Source of the DNA: Enterobacteria phage 2851
DNA: 57,248 nt
Direction: 5' to 3' (one strand)
Sequence record: NC_049943.1
Part shown: one piece after another, positions 9,001 to 12,000 of the stretch
Layout: each line of letters starts with the position of its first letter
Position numbering within the stretch: position 1 is the stretch's first letter
Position numbers: made by a program

Positions 9001-12000
9001 GTTTTTTTGGGCGAGAGGAAAAGAAAACCCGGCATGGAGGCCGGGTTGATGATTAGCGGTGTGGCCTTGAGCGATAATGCTCACACACATGTTCAAGATT
9101 TCCATGCCTTATCCGTTCATAGGCATTCACATGAACTTCTCGATCGAATTGGTCATTCAAATTGTATGTAGACATCTGTGTTTTCTCATATTGGCGGCAG
9201 CCCTACAACCGCTTGAAAAAATGTACCAGACGCGCTAAGGTTACATCGCAAATATTGTGTACCTTAACAAGGGCTCCTTTTGGAGGCTCTGGTTAAACAG
9301 CATCAATGTCGGACTGGGGAGTTGGACATTGTGCTGAATGCTTTTGCATTATTGAGGCCGAACGTAAACCTTCAGAATTGAAGAGATGCGTTCGGCTTCT
9401 TCGTTTGTGATATCGTTAGGAATGCCTTTAATCGTTACTGTAACCCCTGATTCAGGTCGAAGAACTACTGGAAGATCATAGGTATGAAGTGCATTAGCCT
9501 TGCCTTCGACTTTTGTTGGTTCGCCAGTCAAATCTTTTTCCTCACTGGATTCTTTGTCAATCGGAGTGTATGGGATTTCTTCACCAGACTGGAAAGCTAC
9601 AAACTTTTTGATTGCACTTTCCATGCGGCTTTTATATGCAGTAATGCTGCTGTCGCTAGGCTTCGGCTCAGTTGCGTTGATGTATCGCTCGGCAAGCTCA
9701 TTCACATCAAGCTGAGTAACATCACCCATTTCCTCTTCTTGGACTACCGTTAAGAGGCGAGCGGATGAGTTTTTTAAATTTCGAGCGGTGGCCTCCTTCA
9801 TTATGTTCAGCGACATAAGCTCTTCAAGGAAGTCCTTGAATGCCTGCACGCTAACGTTTGACTTTGCCATTTGCTCTCTCTCTAAGTTATTGACTCAGAT
9901 CGAGTTTATCCAGGAATTGATTTGCATGCAAGACTCAAGTCTTGAGAATTTCCGTTCAAGATCCACTCTCAATAAAAAAGGCCGCACCTCTGCGACCTTT
10001 CATCTCCTAAATCTCTTTTCTCTTACCTAAAGAAACAGCAGGCTGGGTCAGCCCTAACAACTTCAAGTGCATCGGTCAGAGAAAGCTCCGTGCTATACAG
10101 GTGTTATTTCATATCTTTTTGCATCCAATAAATTTTCCATCTGTCCAGAGAGCGGATGCACTTGATTCTTGTTGATGGCAGGACGTTTTTTCACCTGCCT
10201 CACCCTGCCATACAGGACGCTGCTCACCGATATCTATCGTCCGGTCATTGATGTTATAGACAATATCCAGATCATTACGGATATACTCAGATGGCCTTAT
10301 GCTTTCAATGAATAGATGAACTTCTTTTTGACCGCTTGATACTCATGGCCATTAAACTCCATCTATCCTCTTTACCCAAACGTCTCTTCAGGCCATTGGC
10401 TGGCGATAACTTTCCCCACAACGGAACAACTCTCATTGCATGGGATCATTGGATATTGCGGGTTTAGTGGTTGTAGAAACACCTGACCGCTATCCCTGAT
10501 CAGTTTCTTGAAGGTAAATTCATCACCACCAAGTCTGGCTATGCAGAAATCGCCGGGCTCAACAGCTTGCTCAGGGTCAACCAGAATTAACATCCCGTCA
10601 GGAAAACTAGGTTTGGAACCTGTTGGTGCGGTCATTGAGTTACCTTCAACCTCAAGCCAGAATGCAGAGTCACTGGCTTTTTTGGTTGTGCTTACCAATC
10701 TCTCCGCATCACCTTTGGTAAAGGTTCTGAGTTCTGGAGAGAACATCCCAGCCTGAACATGAGAAAAAACAGGGTACTCATATTGTTTTTTAACTGGGGC
10801 CGATGAGTATTCGCCAACAGGTGAAAATGTCCCGTCGTGGTTGAATGATATGTTATCAATACCAAGGTATTTAAACACCACACCAATATCACTAAGAGAT
10901 GGATGACGAGATCCGCGCAACCAGTGTCCAATTCCACCCTGCGTCATACCTAGCTCTTCGGCTAACTTCTCTTGAGTTATGCCGAGCTCTTTCATTCTGG
11001 ATCTAGCCAGTTCATACCATTTCATTTTCATGTCCTTATTATTACGCTCTGTACTGGAACCATCCATGCACAATGTGTATTTTTACTTGTATTTGAGAAG
11101 TACATATTGTATTTTTTTGTTCGTGGTTACTATGGAGGGCATATGAGCAACCTACGAAAATATCGAGAGTCACTGAATATCTCTCAAACAACACTTGCTA
11201 AGGCAGTTGGATGCACACAGGGAGCTATCGGACATTGGGAATCTGGTCGTCGCTTCCCAGACCTTAAAACATGCCGTGCTCTTGTTGCGTGTCTAAACAA
11301 GTTAGGCGCAAAAGTAAGTCTTGATGACGTGTTCCCGCCGGAGCACAAAGCCGCTTAATAAGCGGAGCCGCTCTTTGTAACAACGGACATTCGTCCTACG
11401 TCGCTGAAAAGCGAGTCCCAAGATATCTGACCAACTAAGGCCATATGCGTTTCCACGCATACCTTTCAACTAACTATTCACTATTGGAAATCTTAAGAAA
11501 TGGAACGAACAAGTTACAGCAAACTATCACAGCGCGACGTTGATCGCGCAGAAACAGATTTACTCATCAACCTGTCAACGCTTACACAGCGCGGTCTGGC
11601 AAAGATGATTGGCTGTCATGAATCGAAGATAAGCAGAACGGACTGGCGGTTTATTGCTTCGGTCTTGTGTGCTTTCGGAATGGCATCAGACATCAGTCCG
11701 ATTAGCAGGGCTTTTAAGTATGCGCTTGATGAAATCACAAAGAAAAAATCCCCGGCTGCCACCGAGGATTTTAAGCAAATTGATATGCAATTCTGAGGGA
11801 ATTACTGGATCAATCCACAGGAGTAATTATGACAAAACGTCGTAAGAAATACCAGGAAAAAGAAGAGATTCGACACCCTGATTCACCTGAGGGATTAGTG
11901 GTAGCCGCAGCAAATAACAGGGCGTTCGCAGAGCGCCTTGTTGGTGTTTACAGACTAGCCAAAGCAGGAGTGAAACATGGGCGTCGTTAAGTTAGCTGAT

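Follow-up and report, generated by a model that had tools for sequence, protein, structure and literature searches.

What occupies the place directly after the repressor gene of a Shiga toxin (Stx) phage, and why has one of the genes held there resisted deletion? The repressor-proximal slot of lambdoid phages is the home of lysogen-expressed abortive-infection and exclusion genes, such as rexAB of lambda. We analysed this slot in Enterobacteria phage 2851 (record NC_049943.1; the whole stretch of 57,248 nucleotides, numbered from its first letter, is called the window here). An earlier note had described in it an autonomous 173-codon gene between cI and OL/PL. Rather than a single-gene unit, we found a cassette of three parts: a large gene, ECs1184, a structured RNA and a small gene. 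We propose, with a probability of roughly 40%, that this cassette is a toxin-antitoxin-like or addiction module, plausibly acting in abortive-infection defence, in which ECs1184 restrains the small protein. Its elements, in the direction of transcription, are:

9974-9997, minus strand: upstream intrinsic terminator, AGGTCGCA-GAGG-TGCGGCCT followed by a T-run (dG -15.9 kcal/mol, z -4.1).
9929-9944, unstranded: operator-like palindrome CAAGACT-TG-AGTCTTG (7+2+7), its right arm overlapping the -35 hexamer.
9903-9931, minus strand: predicted sigma-70 promoter, with -35 TTGCAT at 9931-9926, a 17-nt spacer and -10 TAAACT at 9908-9903.
9349-9870, minus strand: large gene, 173 amino acids (ECs1184, also ORF23, H0093, VT2-Sap23 and WP_001130059), recognised as an open reading frame (ORF) and by PHROG 2602.
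9176-9348, minus strand: structured RNA, long form, 173 nt, recognised by fold energy and covariation.
9053-9175, minus strand: small gene, 40 amino acids (H0092; MSTYNLNDQFDREVHVNAYERIRHGNLEHVCEHYRSRPHR), type A, rich in His and Cys, recognised by its codon substitution pattern and PHROG 21154.
9017-9047, minus strand: downstream intrinsic terminator, AACCCGGC-CUCCAU-GCCGGGUU and U-run (hairpin 9026-9047, U-tract to 9017; dG -14.3 kcal/mol, z -5.0).

The coordinates that the earlier note gave for the large ORF stood, as did its description of the product as acidic and free of transmembrane segments (pI 4.85, net charge -8.4, maximal Kyte-Doolittle value 0.72 over 19 residues). The statement that it matches nothing recognisable had to be revised: the gene is already named, being ECs_1184 of prophage Sp5 in E. 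coli O157:H7 Sakai, its product matches PHROG 2602 over residues 1-173 of 173 (E 3.5e-102), and a core-binding-like fold is predicted for it. PHROG 2602 carries no functional annotation and the protein is labelled hypothetical in all 48 phage records encoding it. By exhaustive profile search the family comprises 657 clusters at 50% identity (241 at E <=1e-10). The best 150 of these 657 matches measure 110-238 residues, nearly all of them 157-208, and almost all align with nearly the whole profile. Positions Y79, R82, P151 and E158 are invariant in the family, and the C-terminal motif reads P-[IV]-P-L-R...G-[LI]-P-x-D-L-T-x-x-E-A-E-R-I. Structure prediction, which the earlier note had proposed, was performed by AlphaFold2 with 30 homologues and gave three regions: an N-domain (about residues 1-100) of four confident helices (pLDDT about 90 for 31-90), an acidic linker predicted to be disordered (102-127), and a small C-domain (129-173), highly conserved and made of a beta-hairpin plus a helix (pLDDT about 70 for 129-165). 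The modelled N-domain resembles the core-binding fold of tyrosine recombinases. Pfam returned Phage_int_SAM_1 alone for ECs1184, below threshold (E 0.047), and SAM-like models matched 7 of 55 family members (best E 3.6e-4). The catalytic domain with its R-K-H-R-H/W-Y active site is absent from this 173-residue protein, which has no Phage_integrase match, and ECs1184 is therefore not a recombinase. Neither ECs1184 nor the 40-residue protein matched PADLOC-DB v2 at E <=1 or any NCBIfam model; a sequence profile search of the PDB gave nothing at E <=10 and a Foldseek search of viral predicted structures nothing below E 0.05.

The genetic behaviour of ECs1184 was described by Mondal et al. (Sci Rep 2016, PMC5155283), who constructed in-frame, marker-free deletions of Sp5 genes in a K-12 lysogen. 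They obtained 43 mutants, and the only Sp5 genes that resisted deletion were ORF23 (ECs1184) and ORF21 (ECs1180). No conserved domain was found, and the authors suggested that loss of either gene is lethal and that both are required for stable lysogeny (PMC5155283). The earlier note had allowed for a deletion without phenotype; the published outcome is the opposite one, the deletion itself being unobtainable (PMC5155283). The protein is present in lysogen cultures, as it was recovered from Sakai by TRAPP, which purifies the proteins associated with total RNA, in a 2025 RNA-interactome study, at a false discovery rate of 0.065 (PMC7618764).

Downstream of ECs1184, the segment 9046-9348, which had been taken for spacer, contains the conserved structured RNA and the 40-codon gene. 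Over a 25-codon core, pairwise codon differences among six homologues of the small gene amounted to 163 synonymous versus 26 non-synonymous in the type A frame; four other frames gave 7-14 synonymous versus 168-179 non-synonymous and one antisense frame 88 versus 91. The Yersinia copy carries a 9-nt indel that keeps the frame. Judged by this substitution pattern, the gene is truly coding and under strong purifying selection. The sole match of its product is PHROG 21154 (E 5e-8), of unknown function. H0092 is annotated solely in a 1999 record and is omitted from current RefSeq genome records, which also leave out VT2-Sap22, a 53-residue GeneMark ORF of NC_000902 (9077-9238, plus strand) antisense to the 40-codon gene; VT2-Sap22 is probably spurious, the minus-strand frame being the one selected.

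A locus search yielded 4 loci in species-representative genomes and 65 in IMG/VR. We compared 38 non-redundant cassettes, mostly on IMG/VR phage contigs, with large-protein identities of 33-100%. In all 38 the large gene is followed, after a gap of 147-174 nt, by a small ORF that belongs to one of three types. Type A (40-44 amino acids) is characterised by VHVNxYERIRxGNLEHVCEH[YF]RSRPH; type B (56-59 amino acids) by AKAGTPDSERxxLDAHxYGYKCWSF and a match to PHROG 33859; type C (47 amino acids) by a zinc-ribbon-like CxxC...CxC arrangement with a weak zinc-finger model match. Homology among the three was not detected by hhalign profile-profile comparison (probability <1%), and for none of them was there a match to the toxin superfamilies so far described, RelE/ParE, MazF, HipA and Doc among others. 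The pI is about 7.0 for the type A protein of the window, 10.4 for type B and 9.0 for type C, compared with 4.85 for the large protein. The types are shuffled with respect to the phylogeny of the large protein.

When the E. coli and Yersinia cassettes are compared, no other DNA is as well conserved as the 173-nt segment that separates the two genes (86% identity; N-domain codons 80%, small gene 77%), and no reading frame is retained through it. Its minimum free energy is -54.1 kcal/mol versus -39.0 +/- 3.9 in shuffles (z -3.9). We analysed separately a long form of this RNA, represented by 8 sequences (window, Salmonella, Yersinia and others), and a short form represented by 19. For the long form, RNAalifold gave 41 pairs, with 93.9% of cells pairing versus 27-46% when the 3' partners were slid; 11 pairs had changed on both sides versus 0-4, and the observed covariation was reached in 0 of 500 shuffles. 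The short form folds into six helices with 35 pairs (90.2% pairing versus 33-46%; 18 compensatory pairs versus 6-9). Both share one plan, in which a hairpin straight after the stop codon is followed by a long-range helix around an inner hairpin, then by invariant unpaired UAGCG and UCAAG motifs, a last hairpin, and the small gene's ribosome-binding site and AUG. The RNA end abuts this ribosome-binding site in every form. G-U pairs on the gene strand speak for an element of RNA rather than of double-stranded DNA.

Rfam 15 gave no relevant match, whether the whole window was searched at gathering thresholds or 8300-11200 at permissive E-values, nor did five short-form loci at permissive E-values; the matches near the cassette (GadY, PrrF and Hrs1, E 0.77-3.5) lie over 9015-9144 and owe their scores to the downstream terminator. 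Since the long form of the window is missed, even with filters off, by a covariance model of the 19 short-form RNAs, the kinship of the two forms rests on position, architecture and the motifs that both contain (UAGCG, UCAAG, ribosome-binding site). Small genes of type C are found after either RNA form, which places the exchange point 3' of the RNA and makes the RNA part of the platform, not of the cargo. The loop of the first hairpin (about 9311-9324, minus strand; 14-16 nt, flanked by CAATGTC and GACATTG) is inverted between cassettes: it reads AACTCCCCAGT in the window, Yersinia and one further cassette (L046), and GACTGGGGAGT in Salmonella and four others (L054, L081, L083, L087). The difference appears to be an inversion, as would arise from template switching, recurrent across lineages.

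An RNA bound by Hfq has been mapped to this region. Tree et al. (2014) reported EcOnc20, an Hfq cross-linking site listed as orphan, which lies at 1255628-1255753 on the Sp5 minus strand (PMC4104026, Table S2) and was reproducible in 4 of 5 data sets. In current RefSeq coordinates it corresponds to window 8946-9071; the older Sakai genome version is shifted by about 136-142 nt at stx2B/AsxR, which alternatively puts EcOnc20 at about 9082-9213. By either mapping it lies on the cassette strand, in the 3' part of the cassette. The Stx-phage anti-small RNA AsxR was considered as a candidate for the cassette region and rejected, AsxR being located 3' of stx2B (PMC4104026). Together with the recovered protein (PMC7618764), this Hfq-bound minus-strand RNA (PMC4104026) supports expression in lysogen cultures. 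Might the cassette then be centred on the RNA, its leader or the 3' end of its transcript regulating host or phage transcripts and the proteins being accessory? Such a moron would explain why the RNA is its most conserved DNA, with a structure backed by covariation, and would be in familiar company, as Stx phages encode several Hfq-dependent regulatory RNAs (PMC4104026). We nevertheless regard it as unlikely, given that both proteins are under purifying selection, with large-protein motifs invariant over more than 600 clusters, that an RNA ending exactly at the ribosome-binding site of the small gene has the layout of a cis-acting leader, and that EcOnc20 is uncertain in position by about 140 nt and not confirmed by northern blot.

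In 38 of the 38 phage cassettes, large gene, RNA leader and one small-protein type occur together. The cI alleles that precede the cassette are of at least four kinds (in Proteus, Providencia, Morganella, Serratia, Salmonella and Yersinia). Elsewhere it is found among tail genes (Erwinia, at a tail-fibre moron site, with the RNA and a type B gene) or between the Q antiterminator and the lysis genes (Pseudescherichia vulneris). As the three parts stay together in three unrelated sites, their function lies within the cassette and does not depend on any single immunity system. The cassette thus distributed appears to be a horizontally mobile accessory unit (moron). The earlier picture of a self-contained unit is upheld by its own conserved predicted promoter, the terminators on both sides, and the recurrence of the same cassette behind different cI alleles and at two other moron sites.

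This distribution also bears on the explanation that Mondal et al. proposed, namely that ECs1184 is a lysogeny-maintenance factor of Sp5. It would then be a second regulator silencing a lethal phage function or the lytic programme, and its loss would induce the prophage or kill the host. A cassette that accompanies so many repressor alleles and that lies, in Pseudescherichia and Erwinia, far from any repressor is not what this explanation predicts, even if the gene could not be deleted from the lysogen (PMC5155283) and sits beside cI in the same direction. The close sister phages 933W and phi24B do without the cassette and hold other cargo in the slot, the prophage of strain 644-PT8 carries IS1203 between the -10 hexamer and the ATG of the large gene, and relatives of ECs1184 reside at non-phage chromosomal spots next to uvrB. 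We therefore consider a lysogeny factor improbable.

The chromosomal relatives, found in Alphaproteobacteria (L018, L096, L092), occupy variable spots, directly after uvrB in two of three, and are without the RNA element. Cargo begins 7-9 nt after them and consists of a HigB-like toxin with its antitoxin, a Gp49-type toxin with an HI1420-type helix-turn-helix protein, or a DUF3800 protein. The pattern in this class is one of a conserved gene ahead of exchangeable toxin or defence genes.

Within E. coli, 234 of 5426 complete genomes carry the cassette, in full and with an identity of at least 99%, and the adjoining DUF3024 gene is a pseudogene in the copies examined. Three natural disruptions were found. 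Besides the IS1203 insertion in 644-PT8, plasmid pNJS001-2 carries an IS3-family element within the RNA, at about 9212, which splits off the small gene; in an IMG/VR phage (L091) the promoter is lost, no more than 19 codons of the large gene are left, and the silent remnant keeps RNA, small gene and terminator behind another terminator. In no copy among those examined was the large gene broken while promoter and small gene were intact. The upstream gene could not be removed in-frame, yet can be silenced along with its partner, which fits an addiction module.

In the promoter region, the 16-bp palindrome noted earlier is indeed there, and arms AAGACT/AGTCTT with a centre of 1-4 nt recur at a fixed distance from the ATG in Salmonella, Yersinia and two further cassettes (L046 and L017), the L017 version being a perfect 16-mer, AAGACTGATCAGTCTT; remoter subfamilies carry other repeats at the same place, for example TTCATCGATCGATGAA. 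Transcription is predicted to start near 9895, leaving a 5' untranslated region of about 25 nt with an AGAGAG, as read from the sequence. Promoter hexamers, spacing and untranslated region are kept in Salmonella, Yersinia, Proteus (TTGCAA-17-TAGAAT) and Serratia. As upstream terminator, palindrome/-35, -10 and 5' untranslated region are all conserved in the homologous cassettes of these four genera, they are not chance features. Two GATC sites lie upstream of the large gene in the window (9898-9901 and 9960-9963). Over the 120 nt upstream of 37 non-redundant cassettes we counted 81 GATC sites versus 14.4 +/- 3.9 in shuffles, a density 5.6-fold above the locus background; the 37 sequences are akin to each other, yet their GATC sites lie in differing sequence contexts. 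They are often found within the operator-like repeats and beside the -10. These GATC sites and repeats suggest putative operators that co-vary with the large protein and are possibly Dam-sensitive.

The borders of the cassette confirm that it lies in the rex position, as had been proposed: the 3' end of cI and the segment 8932-9047 are both homologous to the flanks of rexA-rexB in lambda-type prophages, and the assignment is correct because both borders are. The last cI codons and 8932-9047 are common, at 87-90% identity, to many prophages with other cargo. The segment running from the second terminator towards OL shows the same 87-90% identity with the sequence directly after rexB in lambda-type prophages, whose order is cI-rexA-rexB-[segment matching 8932-9047]-N; the second terminator is therefore the counterpart of t_imm. 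The VT2-Sakai record labels this hairpin as the pRM transcript terminator. Hairpin and U-run were found where expected for both terminators. The upstream hairpin is retained in Salmonella, Proteus and Serratia cassettes regardless of the gene upstream, and in 933W the same hairpin occurs without the T-run and homology with the window stops there. On these alignments, 9974-9997 is the 5' border of the cassette and a recombination border, and 9017-9047 its 3' border.

Such a position had made the earlier note think of exclusion genes. On that picture ECs1184 alone would be a rex-like superinfection exclusion protein, the RNA and the 40-codon ORF being passengers. That the gene has its own predicted promoter, that its protein is present in lysogen cultures and that its remote relatives lack both RNA and small ORFs all agree with this. 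Passengers, on the other hand, would hardly be kept at fixed spacing in 38 of 38 cassettes with both under selection, and a pure exclusion gene should delete freely, like rexAB, which ECs1184 did not; this explanation has little chance of being right. Very improbable is a recombination platform, in which a core-binding protein and a hairpin site would recruit a XerC/D-type host recombinase for integron-like cargo swapping: a conserved gene and hairpin-rich element ahead of unrelated cargo in phages, the exchangeable cargo of the Alphaproteobacteria (HigB, Gp49 or DUF3800) and an exchange boundary 3' of the structured element (type C with both forms) are compatible with it, but ECs1184 has no catalytic domain, neither cassette arrays nor repeated sites were seen, the sense-strand G-U pairs and abutting ribosome-binding site fit an mRNA leader, and the shuffling would follow just as well from ordinary homologous recombination between flanks that are conserved.

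We thus return to the addiction or abortive-infection module. According to this model, promoter and palindrome, ECs1184, RNA leader and 40-residue protein would form one transcription unit, insulated by terminators. ECs1184 would be the restraining component, acting by promoter repression at the palindrome, by a translation block via the leader or by direct binding, and the small protein would be an exchangeable effector; loss of ECs1184 with promoter, leader and small gene left in place would then harm the cell. The anatomy of the cassette, its conservation, the RNA structure, the coding nature of both genes and their mobility are established, and the fold is given by a model. We favour this module because in-frame deletion of ECs1184 failed while 43 other Sp5 mutants were made (PMC5155283); because unrelated small-protein types are shuffled like the exchangeable effectors of modular toxin or defence systems, and because remote relatives directly precede HigB-like or Gp49-type toxins or DUF3800. 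The partners tend to opposite charge (types B and C are basic, type A of the window about neutral), and the promoter repeats differ between large-protein subfamilies, as autoregulation would predict. The natural disruptions (644-PT8, pNJS001-2 and L091) are all such as the model can tolerate, and the cassette stayed intact in 234 E. coli genomes while the adjoining DUF3024 gene decayed. Two further reasons are that the slot holds lysogen-expressed abortive-infection or exclusion genes such as rexAB, and that the three parts travel together across 38 cassettes and three sites.

Several points weigh against this model. The failure to delete ECs1184 is in itself a negative result. ECs1180 (ORF21), which also resisted deletion, lies beyond N and PL, and a regional or technical cause is possible for both failures. 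The small proteins are unlike known toxins and the large protein has no PADLOC or NCBIfam match. A single promoter, with a palindrome, is predicted, and the two genes are not parted by a terminator, but the 173-nt structured spacer is unusual for a type II toxin-antitoxin operon. An acidic N-domain (pI 4.85) is odd for a DNA-binding core-binding domain, and tagged ECs1184 was labelled no better than green fluorescent protein in a polynucleotide kinase assay (PMC7618764), so that strong RNA binding by ECs1184 is unlikely. The alphaproteobacterial toxins bring their own antitoxins, and the large protein is therefore not simply a family-wide antitoxin. The uniformity of the 234 genomes largely reflects O157:H7 clonality. 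Finally, co-transcription, binding partners, toxicity of the small protein and an anti-phage role are what we infer. A broader version, proposed with more reserve, is a so far undescribed three-component system in which a platform protein derived from a core-binding domain, widespread (over 600 clusters) and coupled in other bacteria to HigB-type toxins and DUF3800, might release interchangeable effectors via the RNA, possibly under Dam-sensitive operators; we think it possible but doubtful.

The surroundings of the cassette are those of a known prophage. The features next to it are:

10372-11073, minus strand: cI, with Peptidase_S24 and helix-turn-helix domains (Pfam).
10023-10362, minus strand: DUF3024 pseudogene of the 933W L0084 type, a neighbour outside the cassette; by tblastn it spans three frames, with two frameshifts and one stop.
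8811-8827, 8836-8852 and 8869-8885, unstranded: OL operators, annotated in deposited VT2-Sakai and Stx1-phage records.
8348-8692, minus strand: N (N_peptide, 2e-32).

On the minus strand the order is thus cI, cassette, OL/PL and N. The segment 8800-10400 is 100% identical to VT2-Sakai (Sp5), Nil2, Stx2 phage 1717 and the Morioka Stx1/Stx2-II phages, and the 100% match extends to about 40 further Stx-phage records, which identifies the window as an Sp5/VT2-Sakai-type Stx2 prophage. The cI stop at 10372 agreed with the ORF map. The operator-like repeats that had been placed at about 8840-8925 are instead annotated as OL at 8811-8885, where they are similar to the OR sites. The 370 bp after cI, said to hold no ORF above 15 codons, contain on the minus strand a 21-codon ATG ORF and a 44-codon GTG ORF and consist of the DUF3024 pseudogene. 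Its DNA (10023-10362) is about 82% identical to intact DUF3024 genes, which stand directly behind cI in 933W (L0084), in phi24B and in many E. coli, and it matches the L0084 protein at 81-83% identity in tblastn; the lesions are two 1-nt deletions and one in-frame TGG-to-TAA change. The intact 933W L0084 matches the PADLOC candidate defence gene PDC-S43 (4e-41), and 10023-10362 is a dead copy of such a candidate-defence gene. Proteus and Providencia prophages have an intact DUF3024 gene ahead of the cassette, and the Morganella cassette is likewise preceded by one. The 66-residue coding sequence with an ATT start that PGAP calls at 10109-10309 (minus strand) was rejected as a gene, being a mere fragment of this pseudogene. 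On the whole, the ORF, both terminators and the palindrome of the earlier note are in place; the 370-bp claim, the operator position and the reading of 9046-9348 as spacer are not maintained.

Farther out, ECs1180/ORF21 is an 83-residue ORF at 8038-8289 (minus strand), which belongs to the PL operon and comes next after N. Rfam matches to isrK (74.7 bits, 16258-16334, plus strand) and, adjoining it, C4 antisense RNA (66.7 bits, 16360-16443, plus strand) lie side by side; C4 being of the P1/P7 immunity type, they suggest an antirepressor-type locus under antisense-RNA control in the early-right region. An ALIL frameshift pseudoknot (121.5 bits) and an sRNA-Xcc1 match, at 18107-18223 (minus strand) and 18701-18784 (plus strand), were also found, and the pseudoknot marks an IS3-family (IS629/IS1203-like) element within the prophage. 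Rfam further matched STnc100 (24017-24228, plus strand; 158.5 bits), three tRNA genes (22366-22606, plus strand) and the lambda cIII thermoregulator (7369-7427, minus strand). The tRNA genes are the ileZ-argN-argO set found upstream of stx2 in Sakai; they sit about 2.3 kb farther from the cassette than in Sakai Sp5, and the window is therefore not the Sakai copy itself.

That the gene exists and resists deletion had been published before. The fold, the size of the family, the second gene, the RNA motif, the three-part layout and the pseudogene were met in none of the sources searched, namely Rfam 15, Pfam, PHROGs, PADLOC, NCBIfam, the phage annotations and the literature. Sp5 is the Stx2a prophage of the reference enterohaemorrhagic E. 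coli outbreak strain, and anything that stabilises it or alters the fate of its host bears on the persistence of the toxin phage. ECs1184, to which no domain, partner or mechanism had been assigned, gains a predicted fold, two linked partners, a large family and a testable hypothesis. If that hypothesis is true, the failed deletion is explained, the repressor-proximal slot of lambdoid phages holds a new modular system, and functions are found for a new RNA motif and for a recombinase-derived domain without catalysis; should it be false, an explanation is still wanted for the RNA motif and the conserved mini-proteins.

How does the cassette compare with known systems? Accessory modules of the lysogen side are a familiar kind of cargo for the repressor-proximal slot; the composition of this one is unfamiliar. 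The closest counterpart by position is lambda rexA-rexB, which shares the slot, homologous borders, the orientation of cI, lysogen-expressed cargo and a two-protein module. Rex is an abortive-infection system, and rexAB is dispensable for the lysogen. The cassette proteins have neither sequence nor fold similarity to RexA or RexB (Pfam, PHROG, PADLOC), and RexB is a polytopic membrane protein whereas ECs1184 has no hydrophobic segment. The cassette is moreover cut off from cI by a terminator and has its own predicted promoter and a structured RNA. The dispensability of rexAB also contrasts with the failure to delete ECs1184 (PMC5155283).

Toxin-antitoxin systems of types II and III (HigBA, ToxIN) are comparable in that ECs1184 behaves genetically as an unremovable antidote, within a compact autonomous unit with an operator-like promoter palindrome and an exchangeable downstream partner, carried on mobile elements. 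An acidic larger protein is paired with a small partner (basic in types B and C, neutral in A), and relatives of the cassette protein stand directly upstream of HigB-type toxins. Neither cassette protein, however, belongs to any toxin or antitoxin family, the toxicity of the small one being inferred, and the genes are parted by a 173-nt RNA instead of overlapping. Unlike ToxI, this RNA is a single structured unit and not a repeat array.

Catalytically inactive derivatives of tyrosine recombinases are known as prophage regulators, MrpR of SPbeta and SroF of phi3T among them. Compared with lambda Int, MrpR and SroF, ECs1184 combines a core-binding-like domain with a linker and an unrelated 45-residue domain, lacks the catalytic domain, and differs further in that the core-binding-like domain is acidic and its similarity falls below Pfam thresholds. 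Other cargo of the slot, such as L0083-stk-L0081, which follows L0084 in the 933W slot, DUF3024/PDC-S43, and BstA, which lies next to the repressor, resembles the cassette in consisting of variable lysogen-side genes directly after the repressor. BstA of Salmonella BTP1 is described as a prophage abortive-infection protein (PMC8585504). These proteins are unrelated to those of the cassette, and none is described with what sets it apart, a structured RNA leader followed by an exchangeable mini-protein.

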